Of a DNA stretch of 64,000 nucleotides, positions 26,672-36,647 are shown one piece after another; within the stretch, counting starts at the first letter, position 1; every line of letters begins with the position of its first letter. This DNA is from Bacteroidales bacterium (GTDB lineage Bacteria; Bacteroidota; Bacteroidia; Bacteroidales; UBA10428): the NCBI GenBank assembly GCA_016929525.1, contig JAFGIP010000048.1:71456-135455 (forward strand), written 5' to 3'. The notes below the pieces were generated by a model. The model saw only the letters and a list, made by a program, of their open reading frames with translations. It made no database searches and was not told the origin of the DNA. Made by a program: the position numbers and the translations under genes.

Positions 26672-27100
26672 ATGAAAACAACAGCAAAATGGATCAGTGA
26701 GAATAATTATATTCTGAATAATAGTAAAAATCTGAATATTGCTATTTCAGATCCGGTCAATCAGGAAAGTAATAATGAAATCAACTGTTTTGATCTGGTT
26801 TTAATGGGATTTACCGGTTGCATAACGGCTGAATTTAAGAAACAAATTACCAGGCGCCATATAATTATTCAGGATCTTGAAACAGAACTCCGGATTATTA
26901 ATTATAGTGACAAAATACATCCTTCTTTCAGCCTGCAGGTAATAAGTAAAGTTAAATCGGCTGCTAAAAAAGAAGTTCTTGAAGAATGTATGAAGCAGGC
27001 TCTTAGTTCCAGCCTGATAGGTATATTGTTTAAAAATTCCGGAATTAAGATCGAAACCCAAATATTTTTAACATCACCGGTTAAGTATTCCAAAGTCTGA
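26672..27100 (+). CDS. OsmC-like protein (divergent)
   Basis: Size and the motif DLVLMGFTGCITAEF match the OsmC/YhfA first-Cys helix. Confidence 0.55.
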   Translation: MKTTAKWISENNYILNNSKNLNIAISDPVNQESNNEINCFDLVLMGFTGCITAEFKKQITRRHIIIQDLETELRIINYSDKIHPSFSLQVISKVKSAAKKEVLEECMKQALSSSLIGILFKNSGIKIETQIFLTSPVKYSKV

Positions 27101-27360
27101 TATGGTCATATAACCTTCAATACGTTCCGCGATCCGGAATCGTGCCTGTTGACAGCTATAAATATGACCTGGGTTCTTCAGCTCACCAAAGCTTCTGAAG
27201 AATTCTTCTCACCGAATGTCGCATAATCCACTTTTAAATTTGCTAATTAGTACGTGGGATCGGTACATATTGACTTATATCGTTTCACTTCGTAACTTGT
27301 TGAAGTTATTATTTATTCCAGTAGAAGTCTTATCACGACATGTAACTTAAATAAACATTA

Positions 27361-29526
27361 ATGAAATCAATACAAATTCTTTTAAGAACAATATGTATCG
27401 GTTTGGTAAATCTATTTTGTCTCTTATCCATTGGGCAGGATAGTTATAATTGCACTTTATTGGGACGTTGGGCGAATGGGTCGACTTACTGTGTGGAAGT
27501 TACAGGGGATACAGCCTATTTTGCTAAAGGGGGATACCTCGATATCATCGACTTTACGAATGCCGGAAATCCTGTTTTGCTTTCAGAGACACTGATTAAC
27601 GGAGATATTCGGGGAATGGATATGAAGTCAGGTAAGGTGTTACTGGCCAACGGATATGAAGGACTTACTATTGTAGATGTTTCCTCAGCTTCCGATCCGG
27701 AGTTACATAGCAAATTGCCACTTTCGGAAACGGACTATGCTTTCGATGTTGAAGCAAATGATACCATGGCTTATGTTTTTGGAGAATACTACTTTCATAT
27801 CGTTGATATAAGCAATCCATCGGAACCTTTTGAAATAAATAGTTATGAGACCATGTTCTATGGATGGGAAGTTGAACTTCAGGATACCCTGGTATTTTTA
27901 GCCAACGCTTCAAGAGGCCTGCGAATTTTGAATATTGCAGACCCTTATGCTATTGATGAACTGTACAATTACGACCCGGGTGGTTATATACTTGGTGTAG
28001 CCATAAAAGATAATTATGCCTATCTGGCTTCCTCATCTAATGGACTGAGAGTACTCGATATAACCAATCTTTCCGATCCTTTGGAAGTTATAAATTTACC
28101 AGTAGACAGTTATACGATAGGGGTGACTATTGAAAGTAATAATCTTTTTCTGGCCAACACCGGAGAGGGACTGATTATATATGACATTTCAACACCCTCA
28201 AGTCCTGATTTTGTGGCTGATTTACCAACTTTATCAGAGGCTCAGCGTGTTGCAGTTTCAAATTCCCGGGCATATATACCGAGAAAATCCAAAGGTCTTT
28301 CTGTGGTAGATCTGTCAGACATTGAATCTCCTGAACAGCTATACGAGTATGAGACAACAGGCTCAATAATGGGTATCGATATTAAGGGTGATTATGCATT
28401 TGTTATTGAAGAAGATCATGGACTCAGAGTACTTGACATAGCTGATCCGGAAAATATTTTACATGTTGGTTTTATCGAAACGAACGATTACGCAACAGAC
28501 TTGTCTGTTGAAGGGGATTACGCTTATATGGCCTGCTATGAAAATGGAATTCGAATTATTGATATATCCGATCCGTCTGAACCTGATGAAGCCGGTCAGT
28601 ATTTAGCTACCGATGTGGCTGAGGATGTTTTTGTAATTGAAAACATGGCTTATGCAGCATACGGCGGGGATGGACTGAGAATAGTAGATGTTACAGATCC
28701 TGCAACCCCAGATGAACTTGGATTTTTTACGATGGAGGCTGATGCAAGAGATGTTATTGTTGAAAACGACCTGGCTTTTGTTCTGTTTAATGATTCGGGT
28801 TTGCACATCATCAATGTTGAAAATCCGGAGCTTACTGATGAATTAGGAAGCTTTATCCCCGACGGAACAACTACCGGAATAGGGACACAGAATAACAATG
28901 CATTTATAGCTACCTGGGATACCGGAGTATATTGCCTTGATATCTCCAATTTAAGTTTCCCTGATCAGGTTGGATTTTTTCAGGGTGATTATAATATTGG
29001 TGACATGATAGTCAGGAATGGTTATGCTTACCTGTCGTGTCAGGAGAACGGCGTTCATGTTCTGGATATCTCCGAACCGGAGGATCCCCGGGAAGTAGCC
29101 TGGTATAATACTCCCGGCTCGGTATATAGTATTGCAGTGCGTGACAATGTAATGTTCCTTGCCGACGGACGCGACGGCTTATATGCTGTCCGGCTGGATA
29201 CATCTCAGACCGGTGTATACTCATCCCGGGATCGTTCTGAGAATACCAGGTTCTCTTCACATCCGAATCCGTTTACTTTTAGCACTGAGCTTGATATTAC
29301 ATTACTCTTCGATTCAAAAGTAAACCTGACACTATACAGCATAGATGGACAATTAGTTAAAATGCTGATGAACAATGAATTTCTTAAGGCCGGAAAACAC
29401 CTGATATCTTGTGATGATAAAGGTGATTTCTACAATTTAATGACCGGTGATATTTATTTGGCTAAATTAGTAATAAGGAATGCTAATGGGGTAGAAGCGA
29501 AGACTATTAAGCTCGTTAAATACTGA
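27361..29526 (+). CDS. LVIVD repeat protein with T9SS type A CTD
   Basis: About 13 repeats of YAY.A….GL.I.DIS.P..P, and C-terminal HPNPF…Y..DGQLVK.L CTD. Confidence 0.9.
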   Translation: MKSIQILLRTICIGLVNLFCLLSIGQDSYNCTLLGRWANGSTYCVEVTGDTAYFAKGGYLDIIDFTNAGNPVLLSETLINGDIRGMDMKSGKVLLANGYEGLTIVDVSSASDPELHSKLPLSETDYAFDVEANDTMAYVFGEYYFHIVDISNPSEPFEINSYETMFYGWEVELQDTLVFLANASRGLRILNIADPYAIDELYNYDPGGYILGVAIKDNYAYLASSSNGLRVLDITNLSDPLEVINLPVDSYTIGVTIESNNLFLANTGEGLIIYDISTPSSPDFVADLPTLSEAQRVAVSNSRAYIPRKSKGLSVVDLSDIESPEQLYEYETTGSIMGIDIKGDYAFVIEEDHGLRVLDIADPENILHVGFIETNDYATDLSVEGDYAYMACYENGIRIIDISDPSEPDEAGQYLATDVAEDVFVIENMAYAAYGGDGLRIVDVTDPATPDELGFFTMEADARDVIVENDLAFVLFNDSGLHIINVENPELTDELGSFIPDGTTTGIGTQNNNAFIATWDTGVYCLDISNLSFPDQVGFFQGDYNIGDMIVRNGYAYLSCQENGVHVLDISEPEDPREVAWYNTPGSVYSIAVRDNVMFLADGRDGLYAVRLDTSQTGVYSSRDRSENTRFSSHPNPFTFSTELDITLLFDSKVNLTLYSIDGQLVKMLMNNEFLKAGKHLISCDDKGDFYNLMTGDIYLAKLVIRNANGVEAKTIKLVKY

Positions 29527-29557
29527 TATTTTCGTATTAAACTGATAAGCAGATCCA

Positions 29558-29648
29558 ATCCTCATAACAGTCAGAAACTCCTGTTTGCGGATTACAAACA
29601 AGCTAATAAGAGGCTGTAGAGCAGGAGAAGATTGTAAAATATGAGGAT
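29558..29648. other. Long interrupted hairpin
   Basis: Nested inverted repeats ATCCTCATA/TATGAGGAT, ACAGTC/GATTGT, CTCCTG/CAGGAG, TGTTTG/CAAACA. Confidence 0.5.
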
Positions 29649-29660
29649 AGAGTTAAATAA

Positions 29661-29687
29661 CAAAGTTATAATAATATTATGTTAAAT
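29661..29687 (+). other. dif-like site A (XerC|XerD orientation, 5-bp spacer)
   Basis: CAAAGTTATAA-TAATA-TTATGTTAAAT. Right arm is 11/11 to the E. coli XerD arm. Left arm is weak. Confidence 0.55.
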
Positions 29688-30019
29688 AGGATTATGAAGT
29701 TCCAGACAGAAAGGGGAGGACAGGCGAGGTTCGTTAAGTCAGGTGTTGATAAGACGTGAAAATATAACAATATCATATATTATAGATTTATAAAAGAATA
29801 GGTCGGTTCATTTAATGTAAAATGATAGGGCATATTCGCTTTTTGATTGCTTATTTGTAAGGTACTGCCATATACGATTAGATGAGCATCAGATCCGGTT
29901 CAGATGAGATCGCTCACCGGAAATTCAGAGATATTCAGGATTCATTTATCATTTATTAAAAGACCAGGGCATTTGTTAATTCAGGAACATCAATGAATTT
30001 TAAAAAAGATATCTTATAA

Positions 30020-31135
30020 TCATACAGTAGGTTTTTTCTCTTTTACCTGGTAAATACCGGTACTTTTTCTTTTACCTTTCAGTTTAATTATTCCTATTTC
30101 CTTAAAGAAATAAGCATCTTTGTCTTCTGTTCGTTTATACAGATCCTCAGAGATCAATAAATCCTGACGGTATTCATTGCACATACTTTCAATACGGGCT
30201 GCCGTGTTAATGGTATCACCGTTATAAGAGATGTCCCTTCGGCCTTGTCCGACCTGCAGTACCATTACATGCCCAACATGCACTCCGGCCTTGAACTTGG
30301 GTACCAGCTTATATTTCCGGTTGAAGTACTTTTTTCGTCCGGAAATCCTTTTTCTGAATGCAAAATAAGCTTTCAGGTAATTACAATCCAGTATCCCGCT
30401 ATTTACTTTCCATGATATAATGGCACCATCGCCTAAATATTGATATACTTCACCATGATAAAAACCAAATACTGTCATGTTATTAAAAACATCCTGTACC
30501 AGATAGCTGAATTTCTTGTGAAAAAGTTTCTCGGCAATAGTAGTGGACGATTTCATATCAAGAAACATAAATATCCGTTCTTCCTCCCTGGGTTTGCTAA
30601 GGATCCCAAAGAACCAGCGGATGAAATTCATTCTTCCCATGCTCATCCGCATTCCTTTTAAAAAGTTGAAAATAATTCCGCTTAAATAAAAATAGGCCAT
30701 AAAGCGAAAGAAATGAATATCCATCTTCGGGATTTGCTGAAAGATCTCTTCGTAGTTATCCATACGGAGCTGATTAACGGATAAACGAGCTGCAATCAGC
30801 ATCAATATAAAGGCAGAGCCGAAATAAACCAGCCACTTAAAAAATACGATCATTCGCATGGGCAGGAACCGGACTATGCGGTCGGTAATAAGCAAATTCA
30901 GCAGAAAGAACAGGAAAGAGATGGCAAAACCGAACACCAAAAGGATAATATATAAATTATCTAACAGAAGTAAATTAAAATACGTTGTAAAGACCTCATC
31001 ATCACCGGTAATGAAAATATAAAACAGGAAAATAACATACCAGTGAATGATTTGGTATAAAAGATATTTAAGGTGTTTAACTAATCTGTTCAGCTTCATA
31101 ATGACGATTTTGATGCAGAAAAATGTTCTTTTCAT
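30020..31135 (-). CDS. Membrane-anchored class III adenylate/guanylate cyclase
   Basis: Four N-terminal hydrophobic helices. Motifs FLDMKSST, YLGDG, GDTINTAARIES. Start may be the second Met at 31099. Confidence 0.88.
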   Translation of the reverse strand: MKRTFFCIKIVIMKLNRLVKHLKYLLYQIIHWYVIFLFYIFITGDDEVFTTYFNLLLLDNLYIILLVFGFAISFLFFLLNLLITDRIVRFLPMRMIVFFKWLVYFGSAFILMLIAARLSVNQLRMDNYEEIFQQIPKMDIHFFRFMAYFYLSGIIFNFLKGMRMSMGRMNFIRWFFGILSKPREEERIFMFLDMKSSTTIAEKLFHKKFSYLVQDVFNNMTVFGFYHGEVYQYLGDGAIISWKVNSGILDCNYLKAYFAFRKRISGRKKYFNRKYKLVPKFKAGVHVGHVMVLQVGQGRRDISYNGDTINTAARIESMCNEYRQDLLISEDLYKRTEDKDAYFFKEIGIIKLKGKRKSTGIYQVKEKKPTV

Positions 31136-31385
31136 GAAGTTACAAAAGCTTTCTGATATTAGACTAAATATGTTATGTGAAATGTGGGGAATGAAATTTT
31201 CTTTGATTTCCGGTGTGCGTAGTATAACACATTAATATGAACATACTATACTTAAACACTTTGCATGTTAGCATAAGCTTCAGCGAAGGTTGAGATAAGA
31301 GCGCTGAGGAAAATTTACTTAAGGGTGTGAGATTTAAATATTTCAAAAGTTTATTGGAAGTATTTAGGTAGTGGGCCGAAAATTT

Positions 31386-31408
31386 GCCTGCCTGCCGGCG
31401 AGGCAGGC
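31386..31408. repeat. Short GC-rich palindrome GCCTGCCTGCCGGCGAGGCAGGC
   Basis: Perfect 8-bp inverted repeat with a 7-nt loop. Absent at the equivalent position of element copy 2. Confidence 0.7.
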
Positions 31409-31476
31409 TTTTACATAAAATCAATGCCGTACTCAAACCACGCCAAGGCGTGGTCTTAGTACTGATGTTATGTTAA

Positions 31477-31494
31477 TCCCGATATGCATCGGGA
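31477..31494. repeat. Short palindrome TCCCGATATGCATCGGGA
   Basis: TCCCGAT/ATCGGGA inverted repeat. Copy 2 has CCGCAAGCGG at the same position. Confidence 0.7.
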
Positions 31495-31511
31495 CCACGA
31501 TTTCTCTGTGG

Positions 31512-31543
31512 TTGTCGTATAATGTTGGTGCATTATGTTAAGT
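31512..31543 (+). other. dif-like site C (XerC|XerD, 10-bp spacer)
   Basis: TTGTCGTATAA-TGTTGGTGCA-TTATGTTAAGT. Left arm is identical to that of site E. Right arm is 10/11 to the XerD arm. Confidence 0.6.
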
Positions 31544-31704
31544 TGCTTTGGAAATTAATTTTTTGAACGATAATTTATTTCCAAATGAAAGATTGAGACT
31601 AAAAGGTAACGGAGGGAGCAAGTATCATTAGTTACGTATTGCAAACACTCTTGTGGCGTAAGCATGGAGCTACAAGTGTGTGTTCGATTAAAAATAATTG
31701 TTCG

Positions 31705-31712
31705 TATATTTG
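31705..31712 (+). promoter_or_regulatory. -7 promoter element of the toxin-antitoxin operon
   Basis: TATATTTG 18 bp upstream of the ATG at 31730. Confidence 0.6.
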
Positions 31713-31729
31713 TAGAAACACAGCTATTA

Positions 31730-31969
31730 ATGCATACAATCAGGTTAAAAATAAATGATAAGGTTTATGACAAGATACTCTGGCTGCTGAGTAAATTTAG
31801 CAAGCACGAAGTAGAAATTATAAACGAGGATGCTGAGTTTTTCGAAAACCAGAAATACCTGGAGAAAGAGTTAGGTGATATAATTTCCGGTAATGCCCAG
31901 TTCATTGAAATGGATGAAGCTGAACAACGACTGGAAAATTTGATTAAACAACATGAAAATCGTATTTAA
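31730..31969 (+). CDS. Type II antitoxin (putative)
   Basis: 79-aa ORF with an acidic C-terminal half, overlapping the downstream toxin by 17 bp. Start chosen at the Met after the promoter. Confidence 0.75.
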   Translation: MHTIRLKINDKVYDKILWLLSKFSKHEVEIINEDAEFFENQKYLEKELGDIISGNAQFIEMDEAEQRLENLIKQHENRI

Positions 31970-32234
31970 GGATTCATTTCTGAATCGTTTAGAAAATCAA
32001 ATCGATTACATTGCTCAGGATAGCCCTGCGAGAGCCAGGAAATTTAAGAATGATCTGATATCTCGAATTAAGGAGATTCCAAATAATCCTTTCCGCTATA
32101 GGAAATCTATTTATTTTAACTCTGATGATATCCGGGATTTAATTTTTAAGGGGTATACCGTTGTTTTCAGAATTACAGAAGACAGAATTGAGATTTTCGG
32201 ATTCGTTAAGTATCAGAATTCTCCAACGGATTGA
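31953..32234 (+). CDS. RelE/ParE family toxin
   Basis: MKIVFKDSF…L…IDYIA.DSP..A..F…I..IPNNP…R…IRDLIFKGYTVVFRI, 93 aa, downstream of a small acidic ORF. Confidence 0.85.
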   Translation: MKIVFKDSFLNRLENQIDYIAQDSPARARKFKNDLISRIKEIPNNPFRYRKSIYFNSDDIRDLIFKGYTVVFRITEDRIEIFGFVKYQNSPTD

Positions 32235-32274
32235 TGAAATCCATAACTTAACAGGTTTGTACTAACCAAAGACA

Positions 32275-32302
32275 ATTTAATATAGTGCTAATTATGCGAC
32301 AA
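32275..32302 (-). other. dif-like site D (XerD|XerC on + strand, 6-bp spacer)
   Basis: Minus strand reads TTGTCGCATAA-TTAGCA-CTATATTAAAT. CGCATAA matches the E. coli XerC arm. XerD arm is 9/11. Confidence 0.7.
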
Positions 32303-32613
32303 ATGCATTACGTGAAGTTAATTCTAGCAAATAAGTCAAACACGATTGGTTTAAATAAAAACTGAATGTAGATTCAAGGACGAGACGTTCTATTTAATAT
32401 AATATCAATTATACTTAATAACTTTGATCAATACGTTGGAAGAAATCGCTCAGAAGTCTTTAGAATTAATTTTACGGAAAGATTATTAGGTTACGGGGAT
32501 AGGATACCGAGAAATCGCTTTAACATAATTTCATTACCGTACTCAAACACCGCTAAGGCGGCGTCCGAGTACTGAAATTATGTTAACCGCAAGCGGCCGC
32601 GATTTCTCTGCGG

Positions 32614-32641
32614 TTGTCGTATAATTAATATTATGTCAAAT
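32614..32641 (+). other. dif-like site E (canonical 11-6-11 geometry)
   Basis: TTGTCGTATAA-TTAATA-TTATGTCAAAT compared with E. coli dif GGTGCGCATAA-TGTATA-TTATGTTAAAT. Confidence 0.75.
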
Positions 32642-32656
32642 AAAAAGAAATAAAAG

Positions 32657-32680
32657 AAAGGAGAATATGAAATTCTCCCT
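32657..32680 (-). terminator. Possible terminator of the gyrA-TPR operon
   Basis: GGAGAAT/ATTCTCC stem beside an A-rich run, just past the TPR stop. Confidence 0.5.
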
Positions 32681-32691
32681 TCCCCGTAATA

Positions 32692-34059
32692 TTATTCAGC
32701 TGAGCAATCACTTGACTCTATCTCGGCTTTCATTTCCTCATACTTATCATTTAACTGCATGCGATAATATAGAGTTTTCAAAGTTTCCATAGTACTACAT
32801 TCCGATTTATCAATTTCATGAGCTTGCTCCATATATGGTACTGACTTATGTAAAACTTCTTCTGCTTCCTGTTTTGCAACTTCATATTCGTCAGCATCCT
32901 TAATTTCATCAGCTGCCTTGTACATTTCAACAGCTTTGTTGTAGTACATTACACCTATGTTATAATAGGCATTGAAGAACTGTGGATCCAGTAAAATACA
33001 TTTTTTATATGTTTCCAGGGCTTTGTCCGTATCTCCCATCTTGTCGTACAGAGTAGCTTCGGCAAAAATGAACGATATATTCTCCGGATCATCCTCCTGC
33101 GCTAATTTGAGATATTCAAGAGCATCTTGTGAACGATCTGCTATCAGGTAATAGTTAATAAGTTCGATTAAAATGGGCTGATTTTCAGGGAATTTCTTGA
33201 ATCCATCTTCCAATACCTGAACTCCCGTTGCTGTATCGCCCGTTTCCCAGTACTTTTGCTTGAGGAACACATATAAATCAGGTTCAGGATAATTGTATTT
33301 CCTTGCCAGTTCATAATAATTAATTGATTCATCAACCAAACCTGCTTTAGATGCAGCTAATCCACTATAATATAACATGGTAGTATCGACAATCCCTTCC
33401 ATTACAGGTTTCTCGTTGATAAGGTAAATATTTGAAAAAGACTTAAATGAATCTTTATAATTCTCTACAAAAAACTGCTCTATCCCTTGTCTTTCAAATA
33501 GTTTCTTCAGCCTGTCGTAATCTTCTTTAATATTTTTCTCTTTCTTATTTTCAATATCGGTTTCCTTGGCCTTATCTAATGCAACTAAGGCTTCTTCCAG
33601 CGGTGTTTCGTGCAAAGGATCAACTTCTGTAAGAGTTTCAACCTTAGTGTCCTTGAATACAACGGTAACATGTTCATATTTATATTCCTCAAAATTACTG
33701 CCTTCTTCCTGCCATGTTTTTTGTTCTGCCGGACTACCTCCCAGCAAAATCATCACATTAGCTTTATCAGTTCCCACCATGATCATTCCCCGGTATACTT
33801 CATAAATATCCATGAACATTTCTGCCCGTGAAAGCCAGTATTTTACAGAAGTATTCTTTTTCTCATCGTTGAGGTCATCCTCGCTTCTTTTCAGTTTGTT
33901 TTTCAGAATGCTATAGTTTGCATCCGGTGTGCCTGTTGTCGTTTGCCCTTTTATTCCTAAACTGAATGTCAGAAAAAAAATGGCTATTACGATTGCTACT
34001 TTGTTCATTTTTAATGTTTTATTTGATTTCCATATTATTGTAAACAAAAAATTTGCCAT
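32692..34059 (-). CDS. Tetratricopeptide repeat protein
   Basis: Signal peptide (likely start near 34008, MNKVAIV…) and several TPRs (AYYNIGVMYYN). Lies directly downstream of gyrA. Confidence 0.85.
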   Translation of the reverse strand: MANFLFTIIWKSNKTLKMNKVAIVIAIFFLTFSLGIKGQTTTGTPDANYSILKNKLKRSEDDLNDEKKNTSVKYWLSRAEMFMDIYEVYRGMIMVGTDKANVMILLGGSPAEQKTWQEEGSNFEEYKYEHVTVVFKDTKVETLTEVDPLHETPLEEALVALDKAKETDIENKKEKNIKEDYDRLKKLFERQGIEQFFVENYKDSFKSFSNIYLINEKPVMEGIVDTTMLYYSGLAASKAGLVDESINYYELARKYNYPEPDLYVFLKQKYWETGDTATGVQVLEDGFKKFPENQPILIELINYYLIADRSQDALEYLKLAQEDDPENISFIFAEATLYDKMGDTDKALETYKKCILLDPQFFNAYYNIGVMYYNKAVEMYKAADEIKDADEYEVAKQEAEEVLHKSVPYMEQAHEIDKSECSTMETLKTLYYRMQLNDKYEEMKAEIESSDCSAE

Positions 34060-34124
34060 GGTATGTTCATAGCAAATTTAATAATTCATGCAAGATATCC
34101 ATTAAATCATTCATTTATTGATAC

Positions 34125-36647
34125 CTATCCATTATTTTCTACCGGATTATCTGGTGTATCTTGTCCGGTTTCAAGGCCATCTTCCTCGTCTTCTTCTTCC
34201 TGACTCTTAATTACGCTTGCTACAGCAGCAATTGAATCTCCTTCACGCAGATTTATTAATCTTACACCCTGTGTAGCACGACCTGATATCCTGACATTTA
34301 TAACACTTAGTCTGATTGTAATACCTGACCGGTTAATGATCATAATATCATCGTTATCCGTAACCGCTTTTATTGAGATCAGACTACCTGTCTTCTCCGT
34401 AATATTAATAGTTTTTATTCCTTTTCCTCCACGATTGGTAATTCTGTAATCTTCAATACCGGTGCGTTTACCAAATCCTTTTTCGGAGACTACCAATACT
34501 GTTGTTTCTTCGTTTTCAGGTTCGATACATATCATTCCGACTACCTCGTCCCTTGAATCCTGTAATTTGATTCCAATTACCCCCGATGCTGTTCTTCCTA
34601 CCTGACGAACGGTACTTTCAGGAAAACGGATTGCTTTTCCGCTTCGCACTGCAAGCAAGAGATGATTTTTACCATTGGTAAGTCTTGCCTGCAAAAGGCT
34701 GTCTCCTTCCCTAATATTGATTGCGATTATACCATTTTGTCTTGGACGTGAATATGCTTCCAGCGTTGTTTTCTTTATTAGTCCGTGTTTTGTAGCAAGA
34801 ACAATATAATTATTGTTAATGTACTCATTATCAGAGAAATTCTTAACATTAATGAAAGCTTTAACTTTATCTTCAGCTTCAATAGATATAAGATTCTGAA
34901 TAGCCCTTCCTTTTGAAGTCCTTGTACCTTCCGGTATTTCATATACTTTAAGCCAGAAACACTTACCTTTCTCAGTAAAGAAAAGCATTGTATTATGCAT
35001 TGTAGCATGAAACATGTGTTCCAGAAAGTCTTCATCACGCGTATCACTGCCTTTGCTACCAACACCTCCCCTGTGTTGTGTTCTGAATTCAGTCAGTGGT
35101 GTACGTTTAATATAGCCCAGGTGTGAAATCGTGATGATCATATCATCGTCGGCATAAAAGTCTTCGGGATTAAACTCTTCAGCGCTGGGCACTATTTCTG
35201 TGCGTCGTTCATCACCATACTTTTCCTTTACCTCATGTATTTCATCTTTAATGATCTTCATCCGGATCTCCTCACTGGCTAATATTTCACGCAACCATTC
35301 GATGTGTTTCATAAGCTCTTCATATTCCTGACGCAGCTTTTCAATTTCAAGTCCGGTAAGTCTCTGCAAACGCATATCGAGAATAGCTTTGGCCTGGACT
35401 TCTGTAAGTTTGAACCTTTCCATCAACCCTTCACGTGCTTCATCAGTTGTTTTCGATGCACGAATAAGCTGTATAACTTCATCTATATTATCAACGGCTA
35501 TGATCAGACCCTCAAGTATATGGGCTCTCTTTTCAGATTGCTCCAGGTCGTACTGCGTACGTCGGATAACTACCTCGTGCCTGTGGTTTACAAAGTACTT
35601 AATGAGCTGTTGAAGATCAAGAATCCTTGGGCGACCCTTTACCAGAGCAATATTATTTACATTAAAACTTGTTTGTAACTGTGAATATTTAAACAAATTG
35701 TTTAAGACAACAGCAGATTGTGCCTCTTTTTTAAGGATTATTACAATGCGTAATCCTGTACGGTCTGATTCGTCGTTAATGTATGAAATACCATCAATCT
35801 TCTTTTCATTGATCATTTCGGCTATCTTCCTGATCATTTCCGCTTTGTTGACCTGATAAGGAATTTCGCTAATAACGATCCTTTCTCTGCCCGAATCTGT
35901 GATTTCAATTTCCGTCCTGGCTCTTACCACAATTCTGCCTCTCCCCGTCTCATACGCTTCTTTTACACCATTATATCCATATATAATACCACCTGTCGGG
36001 AAATCAGGAGCTTTAATATGGCTCATCAACTCTTCAATCGTAATATCATTATTATCGACATAAGCAATTATTGCATCGCATACCTCTTTCAGGTTGTGAG
36101 GAGGCATGTTGGTAGCCATTCCAACAGCAATACCTGAAGCACCATTCACCAGCAAACTCGGAATTCTAGTGGGAAGGACTGTAGGCTCTTCAAGCGAATC
36201 ATCAAAATTAAGCTGAAAATCTACGGTATTCTTATCCAGGTCCGAAAGAGTTTCTTCTGCAATTTTTTGCAGGCGGGCTTCTGTATAACGCATCGCGGCC
36301 GGACTATCACCATCCATCGATCCGAAATTCCCCTGTCCGTCTATAAGAGGATAACGTAACGACCAATCCTGAGCCATACGCACCATCGCATCATAAACGG
36401 AACTATCGCCATGAGGGTGGTATTTACCAAGCACCTCTCCTACGATTCTTGCCGATTTCTTAAATGGCCTGTTCGACATCACTCCCAATTCCGACATGCC
36501 AAATAAAACTCTGCGATGAACAGGTTTAAGACCGTCGCGCACATCCGGTAAAGCACGTGATACTATAACCGACATTGAATAATCAATGTAGGCTGATTTC
36601 ATTTCCTCCTCAATATTGATCTTGATTATTCTTTCTCCTTCTGCCAT
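34125..36647 (-). CDS. gyrA: DNA gyrase subunit A
   Basis: [34 protein letters not shown], GyrA box QHRGGVG and C-terminal pinwheel repeats. Confidence 0.98.

Follow-up and report, generated by a model that had tools for sequence, protein, structure and literature searches.

A 3-kb accessory region (positions 29661-32641) in the genome of an uncultured Bacteroidales bacterium carries an alternating series of dif-like sites, the last of which (site E) is the chromosome's own dif, located at the replication terminus. The region was examined in the window, i.e. the whole 64,000-nt stretch of DNA analysed here (C86:71456-135455, from the 136-kb contig C86), of a metagenome-assembled genome of 4.06 Mb, 36% GC and 122 contigs. 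The DNA between sites A and E is likely to be a stack of recombinase-less, integron-like cassettes that resemble integrative mobile elements exploiting Xer recombination (IMEX) and were inserted on the XerC side of dif, probably by the housekeeping XerC and XerD proteins. All of the extra DNA lies on this side of dif. On this reading, Bacteroidales accessory genes are stored and exchanged as recombinase-less cassettes at a site that every cell must keep recombination-proficient.

The chromosomal dif and the alternating sites

Site E (32614-32641, + strand) reads TTGTCGTATAA-TTAATA-TTATGTCAAAT, an 11-6-11 arrangement whose XerD arm faces a conserved right flank (32692-36647, - strand) that encodes a tetratricopeptide-repeat (TPR) protein (32692-34059) and gyrA (34125-36647), as identified by Pfam and by synteny in relatives. 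Every relative inspected has a site of the form TTGTCnTATAA-TTWWTA-TTATGTTAAnT approximately 50 bp past the stop codon of the TPR gene downstream of gyrA. In three genomes of the same genus (i.e. G005, G021 and G001), the dif after the TPR gene is the sole such site and accessory DNA is absent, and in a complete genome from another family (i.e. G141) the order gyrA-TPR-dif recurs at 1.336 Mb. Along contig C86, the cumulative GC skew climbs over 104 kb before declining, and its maximum is in the 5-kb bin that holds E. In G141, mean GC skew passes from about +0.06 to about -0.05 at dif, a coarsely sampled change that is consistent with a terminus rather than proof of one. No other match in the genome has, like E, a 6-nt spacer between the full TTGTCG XerC arm and a forward XerD arm near the TTATGT-type consensus; site D shares the full XerC arm and 6-nt spacer with E, but is inverted and has a CTATATT arm. 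The dif site and terminus are now located for this uncultured lineage, and gyrA-TPR-dif is a landmark conserved across families. In one relative (L021:10866-13391 in G019:C3), gyrA is broken into three open reading frames (ORFs), which are probably due to frameshift errors of long-read metagenome assembly and do not represent a real pseudogene.

Upstream of E, the forward site C (31512-31543, + strand; TTGTCGTATAA-TGTTGGTGCA-TTATGTTAAGT) has a 10-nt spacer of the form TGnnnnTGCA, and the two sites (starting at 31512 and 32614) are direct repeats. Two sites between them are inverted, namely D (32275-32302, - strand; reverse complement TTGTCGCATAA-TTAGCA-CTATATTAAAT, 6-nt spacer), which typifies the D-inv class, and F (32392-32419, - strand; reverse complement ATTAAGTATAA-TTGATA-TTATATTAAAT), which typifies the F-inv class and was detected by a repeat search as a segment 85% complementary to E. 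The left border of the accessory region is site A (29661-29687, + strand; CAAAGTTATAA-TAATA-TTATGTTAAAT), with a 5-nt spacer, a variable XerC-side arm that ends in TATAA and a perfect XerD arm. An initial annotation had placed A, C, D and E in intergenic DNA with these letters and positions, and direct reading of the sequence combined with an ORF and Pfam check agreed on all four; A, C, D and F were also recovered by site scans. The inverted site F had been omitted. A further site, B, had been listed as degenerate; as a complete site it fails the arm-scoring scan, and what stands is its descent as a decayed homologue of D (31151-31178, - strand). In an alignment of the two non-coding elements, B matches D at 5/11 XerC-arm, 4/6 spacer and 6/11 XerD-arm positions, the 11-mer TTATGTGAAAT at 31173 lacks an XerC arm, and B is not credible as a functional site. 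The proposed alternation of orientation (C|D, D|C, C|D) was upheld, with cargo lying between XerD arms and non-coding elements between XerC arms.

The frequency of such sites was assessed across the whole genome. The pattern TATAA-N5-10-TTATGNNAART had nine matches on both strands of the 4.06 Mb, three of which are inside the 3-kb locus. A stricter, arm-scoring scan produced 18 matches genome-wide with five in the locus, where about 0.013 would be expected for 3 kb. The scan criteria were taken from the locus's own sites and the enrichment is thereby somewhat inflated; the recurrence of the sites in relatives is support that does not depend on these criteria. Two matches elsewhere that are most similar to the locus sites were inspected and both fall inside ORFs. 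Chance clustering was rejected on the basis of the strict matches and of this location of similar matches elsewhere; in the whole-genome check that had been proposed with the initial annotation, the sites are confined to the locus rather than occurring at background frequency.

In relatives, forward sites are of two types. Those adjacent to the TPR gene always have a 6-nt spacer (E-type) and the rest have a 10-nt TGnnnnTGCA spacer and the arm TTATGTTAAAG (C-type). Across more than 20 loci, an E-type site adjoins the TPR gene and each structured unit (described below) further upstream terminates in a C-type site. C-type sites were also present at cassette borders in relatives and on 48 metagenome contigs. 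Inverted sites, with 6-7-nt spacers, lie upstream of the forward site at about 90-200 nt and about 310 nt. D-inv sites occupy the same relative position in five other loci, are back-to-back with C-type sites in three loci and, in minimal versions, are separated from the forward site by 3-4 nt. In more than 12 relatives, an F-inv site (consensus GTCAAGTATAA-TGGATA-TTATATTAAAT) precedes dif or a C-type site by approximately 200 nt, and A-type sites (nnnnnnTATAA-TATTA/CATTA/TTATA-TTATGTTAAAT) are found 0.4-0.7 kb from dif in eight loci.

Structured attachment regions and cassette turnover

A structured unit is present in two copies (31392-31547 and 32504-32645, both + strand) that are ~76% identical and terminate at their 3' sides in sites C and E, respectively; the two sites are therefore homologous copies and not independent events. 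The unit spans ~135-150 nt with its terminal site and consists of a three-way-junction element of ~110 nt directly followed by the XerC arm. Its stems are P1 (GAGAAATCGC/GCGATTTCTC), a short hairpin (P3) and a bulged hairpin of 62-75 nt (P2), whose basal stem TTAACATAA/TTATGTTAA is XerD-arm sequence. The 3' strand of P2 is itself a diverged dif-like site, with 10/16 identities over the XerC arm and spacer followed by TTATGTTAA, which matches the first 9 of 11 XerD-arm positions. A covariance model (R1) was built from the structured unit and used to search genomes and contigs; copy 2, which has the three-way junction, scored 162.6 bits, and copy 1, in which P2 and P3 are intact, scored 117.5 bits. 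In copy 1, a GC-rich terminator-like hairpin (31379-31411; GCCTGCC..GGCAGGC then TTTT) replaces the 5' strand of P1, and this copy is no longer able to close the three-way junction.

The base-pairing of the unit is conserved by covariation. Compensatory changes are clear in an alignment of 13 copies from the genus. Across 41 copies, 94% of cells pair as compared to ~40% in slid controls, double changes are present in 23 of 37 pairs, and the observed values were reached by none of 500 shuffles. On the strand reading from XerC to XerD (i.e. the top strand), there are 51 G.T wobbles versus 27 A.C mismatches. Within the genus, 17 of 25 genomes have a match to R1. The model also matched 14 of the 301 genomes sampled from the order, among them members of 13 other genera and of other families of Bacteroidales; a further 33 matches were on the 48 metagenome contigs, which had been chosen by the exact C-type pattern. 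The unit is missing from same-genus genomes with an empty dif site. A miniature inverted-repeat transposable element or a plain duplication was rejected as an explanation because of the low identity of the copies, their compensatory changes and the spread of the unit through the genus and the 13 other genera.

Each C-type site is followed by a second conserved element, a leader of ~190 nt, as determined from an alignment of 22 regions downstream of such sites. In the window, the leader (31544-31700, + strand) comprises TGCTTTGG, a variable hairpin, a GGAGGG box and the hairpin ACACTC-TTGTGGC..GCTACAAG-TGTGT. RNAalifold analysis of the leader hairpin (ACACnC-TTTTTGC..GCGAAA-G..GTGT) detected covariation in 4 of 11 pairs, and U.G wobbles are frequent on the top (i.e. 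cargo) strand. The sequence TTGCTTTG after the XerD arm bears a weak resemblance to the Bacteroidetes -7 promoter box TAnnTTTG.

Many relatives have a cargo-less version of about 780 bp, consisting of an A-type site, 290 nt termed segX, D-inv, F-inv, the unit and dif. In the window, a cyclase block, unit 1 and a ParDE cassette stand in place of segX. SegX is a conserved non-coding segment of ~290 nt between the A-type and D-inv sites in at least eight species of the genus (e.g. L034:9908-10304 in G009:C7; also five further loci) and is missing from the window's genome; it may represent either an RNA or the core, without cargo, of a minimal element. A unit copy with part of segX was also found on a 1.5-kb contig binned as Ignavibacteria (L066, JAAYAN010000133.1), reflecting either mis-binning or transfer beyond Bacteroidota. 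Units with truncated end sites were observed in four loci (L033:9865-10007, L038:564-717, L039:520-666 and L077). The similarity of these truncated sites breaks off either where the XerC arm ends or where the spacer plus TT ends, which are the two expected Xer cleavage positions, and the sites may record illegitimate or XerD-side exchanges.

The array in the window holds two cargo blocks. The first encodes a 371-aa membrane protein with an adenylate/guanylate cyclase domain (30020-31135, - strand; PF00211, E=2.7e-9) and the second is a ParDE toxin-antitoxin pair (31664-32234, + strand) made up of an antitoxin ORF (31664-31969), whose true start is probably further downstream than 31664, and a ParE toxin (31953-32234; PF05016 ParE_toxin, E=1.3e-12). 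Cargo ranges in size from 1 to 9 kb. In relatives, it includes HepT/MNT and DUF433-family pairs, proteins with type IX secretion system (T9SS) tails, leucine-rich-repeat proteins, GH16 and GH20 enzymes, sulfatases, an AAA_15 / HEF_HK / Response_reg_2 / C5-methylase block, EcoRII-like and D12-methylase restriction-modification systems and Abi-like defence genes. No replication, capsid, transfer or integrase genes were detected by Pfam in the cargo of the window and relatives. In the complete genome G141, a unit whose site has a 9-nt spacer is separated from dif by a 9-kb block (L088:10479-19798; G141:C1:1336479-1345798) with genes for an AAA_15/AbiEii-like ATPase, a Response_reg_2 protein, a HEF_HK histidine-kinase-like protein and a C5 methylase. 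This block looks like a defence island parked at dif. Three independent metagenome arrays (L109, L124 and L134) have a recurring three-ORF cargo of matching sizes (~420, ~140 and ~405 aa), annotated in L124 as an EcoRII-like restriction-modification system (i.e. C5 methylase, Vsr and EcoRII-C endonuclease).

Comparisons between genomes indicate that cassette turnover occurs at the sites, with content gained, lost and exchanged at boundaries that coincide with them, as had been anticipated. The ParDE cassette of the window recurs on a contig from another sediment sample, where it differs at 4 of 347 nt and has a D-inv site, not unit 1, as its left neighbour; the break is exactly at 31512. Homologues of this cassette are present in G010:C74 (80%) and G014:C211 (78%). 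For a DUF433-family cassette, identity is 93% between G019 and G010 and ~80% to a counterpart in G003, as compared to ~72-77% for core genes of the genus, and a three-way alignment bounded this cassette by a C-type site on one side and by D-inv plus C-type sites on the other. HepT/MNT cassettes are common to three species.

No recombinase is linked to the array. A search with PF00589 identified five tyrosine recombinases in the genome and none on contig C86, and no tyrosine recombinase was found near the arrays of five relatives (G019, G010, G003, G012 and G002), in line with the initial annotation, which had remarked on the lack of a nearby integrase. An XerD (TIGR02225, 345 bits versus a cut-off of 329.6) and an XerC-like protein are encoded on other contigs, unlinked to the array, as are the other three tyrosine recombinases (410-492 aa). 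The genes for the XerC-like protein and XerD are at C112:85673-86560 and C97:456-1358.

Proposed insertion at dif and its alternatives

In the proposed model of Xer-dependent stacking at dif, a cassette would comprise, in order, the 10-nt central region and XerD-type arm that make up the right half of a C-type site, the ~190-nt leader, the cargo, one or two inverted sites (D-inv, F-inv; 6-7 nt), the ~110-nt three-way junction and an XerC arm. The cassette's C-type site would recombine with dif, the crossover falling where the XerC arm meets the central region. The chromosomal XerC arm would be joined to the 10-nt spacer, leaving a C-type site upstream, and the cassette's XerC arm to TTAATA-TTATGTTAAAT, generating a dif with a 6-nt spacer next to the TPR gene. 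A crossover at this border predicts that the canonical dif is always beside the TPR gene with the C-type site upstream, as was observed. Repeated insertion would build the array and place the newest cassette closest to dif; here this would be 31523-32624 (i.e. the ParDE cassette), for which site C is proposed as the left junction. As central regions of 10 and 6 nt would be unable to support the second (XerD) exchange, the junction would be resolved by replication, in a XerC-only integration like those of CTXphi and VGJphi. Resolution by replication would also protect the array from deletion during dimer resolution. The suggestion that the array was built by host XerC/XerD is supported overall, and those of the checks proposed with it that were run all agreed with it. 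The anatomy, the identity of dif, the covariation, the turnover at the sites and the lack of a linked recombinase are observed, whereas catalysis by XerC/XerD, a XerC-first exchange and a single-stranded form are inferred.

The inverted pair of long- and short-spacer sites and the covarying junction suggest, by analogy with attP(+) of CTXphi or attC of integrons, that the substrate may be a folded single strand. The top strand would be favoured because of the excess of G.T wobbles in the unit, the wobbles in the leader and the conserved differences between inverted and forward sites, all of which are top-strand G.T wobbles. Roughly half of the confidence placed in Xer-dependent stacking extends to this single-strand step.

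Several observations weigh against this model or parts of it. The XerC-like protein scores 323 bits with TIGR02224, slightly below the cut-off of 335. No excision, inversion or circle junctions were found in Logan contigs, where one weak A-to-F joint with a 21-nt side was disregarded, and none of the 48 metagenome contigs is circular. The known Xer sites in double-stranded DNA have spacers of 6-8 nt, and the 10-nt spacer is outside this range. The A-type sites, with a 5-nt spacer and non-consensus XerC arm, and the cyclase block are not simply predicted by sequential insertion. When the window's F..E segment was folded as DNA, the lowest-energy structure contained an F:E stem for the bottom strand (-43.7 kcal/mol, z -6.8) but lacked it for the top strand (-38.4 kcal/mol, z -4.2). 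Of three back-to-back D-inv/C-type pairs folded against shuffles, one was clear (z -5.5), one weak (z -2.3) and one showed no signal. This equivocal folding means that the strand and the single-strand model remain uncertain. The covarying elements could also be RNA rather than DNA structures.

Searches for a carrier returned little. There was no match to the cassette plus attachment region in plasmid and phage collections. IMG/VR contained one contig with a C-type site (L046), which has no PHROG match and no unit, and three with an E-type site only, and no helper phage was identified there. The latter three are viral-classified contigs of 23-33 kb bearing TTGTCTTATAA-TTAATA-TTATGTTAA without a structured unit (L047:9578-9605, L048:220-247 and L049:2429-2456), and may be Bacteroidota phages or prophage ends that use Xer. 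The organism was absent from three metatranscriptomes of the same study.

An alternative that we consider unlikely is shuffling of the type associated with pdif sites in Acinetobacter, in which alternating sites on duplex DNA delimit cargo 'D modules' and non-coding 'C modules' and XerC/XerD act through cointegrate formation, resolution or inversion, with no folded strand and no ordered insertion. Strict alternation with cargo between XerD arms is as expected for such shuffling, the cyclase gene runs opposite to most cargo as inversion would give, and the occupation of the A-to-D-inv interval by segX in relatives and by the cyclase, unit and ParDE here resembles module replacement. Toxin-antitoxin cargo is reported to be typical of dif modules (PMC6449649). 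However, the combination of 10-nt C-type and 6-7-nt inverted spacers makes full double-strand exchange unexpected, and the canonical 6-nt forward site is found always and only beside the TPR gene. Shuffling also has no role for the ~110-nt covarying junction or the leader, and the array is chromosomal, at the terminus, rather than on a Rep_3 plasmid.

It is also improbable, to a clearly greater degree, that the unit and leader are simply RNA elements (e.g. a 3'-end or insulator structure, a 5' untranslated region or promoter, or a small RNA gene by dif, with duplication of a host locus as the extreme form) and that the dif-like sites are the sole DNA recombination signals. This explanation is in keeping with the strong covariation, with G.U wobbles on the strand that encodes most of the cargo, with the position of the leader between a site and the first gene of each cassette and, weakly, with the promoter-like sequence TTGCTTTG. 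Against it, a search of Rfam in E-value mode with window positions 27000-35000 and the loci of four relatives identified no family for the unit, leader or segX, and the unit is without a U-tract. The XerD-arm sequence of the P2 stem and the diverged dif-like 3' strand of P2 point to recognition by a recombinase, and the absence of the unit from empty-site genomes indicates that it is not a host gene. An RNA role is compatible with Xer-driven mobility and competes only with the single-strand step.

Very little probability attaches to an integron-like platform served by a dedicated, unlinked recombinase other than XerC/XerD and with P2 as an attC-like site (TTAAC...GTTAA boxes and an extrahelical bulge): P2 does have 62-75 nt, imperfect pairing, a 5-nt bulge and ends resembling R''/R' (CTTTAAC...GTTAAYC versus RYYYAAC...GTTRRRY), the cassettes and cargo resemble sedentary chromosomal integrons and clusters of attC sites lacking an integron integrase (CALINs), and the genome has three further tyrosine recombinases, but no integron integrase was found in it with TIGR02249 (best scores of 156 and 128 bits versus a cut-off of 265, both for the Xer proteins), the three recombinases were seen near no array, content breaks ~45 nt further downstream, at the C-type and dif sites, and not within P2, and the anchor is the conserved dif itself.

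Comparison with known systems

A literature search retrieved no published description of dif cassette arrays with these structured attachment regions; reports of IMEX cover Vibrio, Neisseria and Legionella, and dif modules are described from Acinetobacter, chromosomal examples included (PMC12907356). Two systems of Bacteroidales and their relatives share some features of the array. The rAID-1 arrays of gut Bacteroidales also have integron-like rows of genes, repetitive intergenic sequences and defence-type cargo; their defining features are immunity genes of low GC content that all run in one direction and an XerD-like recombinase gene at the 5' end (>=44% identity to BF9343_RS08045) (Ross et al. 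2019; bioRxiv 10.1101/471110). The dif array differs in having no linked recombinase, other repeats and a location at dif, and assignment to rAID-1 was rejected as there is no recombinase on C86 or in the arrays of the five relatives. Microvirus-related proviruses of Bacteroidetes are 6-kb single-stranded DNA phage genomes at dif-like sequences, for which a terminus location was untestable (Krupovic and Forterre 2011, PMC3091885). They are likewise recombinase-less with dif-like repeat flanks, and some have an extra inverted dif-like sequence; in contrast to the array, they carry capsid and Rep genes, do not form cassette arrays and have no described structured unit.

Like the array, integrons and CALINs have their cassettes in an ordered series and carry cargo rich in toxin-antitoxin and defence genes; in both, the recombination regions span 60-150 nt and contain imperfect hairpins and bulges, with structure conserved over sequence. 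They differ in that the array has no IntI, is anchored at dif rather than attI and breaks at 11-N-11 Xer-type sites rather than at the G|TT of a hairpin. A classical integron was rejected on the sub-threshold TIGR02249 scores and the breaks outside the hairpin. A broader proposal, which we put forward tentatively and hold to be possible rather than likely, is that Bacteroidales have an integron-like capture platform with dif as the dock, housekeeping XerC/XerD as the sole recombinases, entry as a folded single strand and an attachment region (the inverted long- and short-spacer pair plus the three-way junction around XerD-arm sequence) functionally intermediate between attP(+) of CTXphi and attC. 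If true, this platform would offer a living parallel to the transition from Xer/dif to integrons. The attachment regions bear on the origin of integron attC recombination from Xer/dif and, being backed by covariation, allow structure-dependent Xer recombination to be tested in a concrete case other than that of Vibrio phages. The sites could also enable integrase-free, site-specific insertion of genes into Bacteroidales chromosomes.

Two Xer-dependent systems offer further parallels. The CTXphi/RS1 IMEX of Vibrio cholerae integrate at the chromosomal dif without a recombinase of their own and stack in tandem next to a still-functional dif. In CTXphi, attP1 (12-bp central region) and attP2 (5-7 bp) lie in inverted orientation at a distance of 90 bp, and the (+) strand is the one that folds (PMC4246890). 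The array similarly has inverted dif-like sites with long and short central regions (10 nt and 6-7 nt), and an XerC-side exchange that XerD could not complete would be shared with this phage (PMC4246890). It differs from CTXphi in carrying only cargo and no Rep, coat or assembly genes, in its Bacteroidales host, in the putative nature of its single-stranded form, in the addition of the ~110-nt three-way junction and ~190-nt leader and in the distance between inverted partners, which ranges from 3-4 nt to ~310 nt. In terms of the features that define IMEX, the array is at the host dif, has no recombinase of its own in a host with XerD and an XerC-like protein, and is flanked by direct dif-like sites with dif reconstituted on one side. 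The Acinetobacter dif modules, found at 28-bp (11-6-11) pdif sites on Rep_3 plasmids with chromosomal examples (PMC12907356), are also small, often encode toxin-antitoxin pairs, have inversely oriented sites, alternate between 'C' and 'D' modules and lack a linked recombinase, whereas the array is in another phylum, sits on a true dif at the chromosomal terminus and has 10-nt forward spacers and large covarying elements. The inverted long- and short-spacer pair is closer to attP1/attP2 of CTXphi than to pdif. The array is IMEX-like in its working and pdif-like in its alternation, yet with no phage genes, no plasmid and 10-nt spacers it is a member of neither group as defined.

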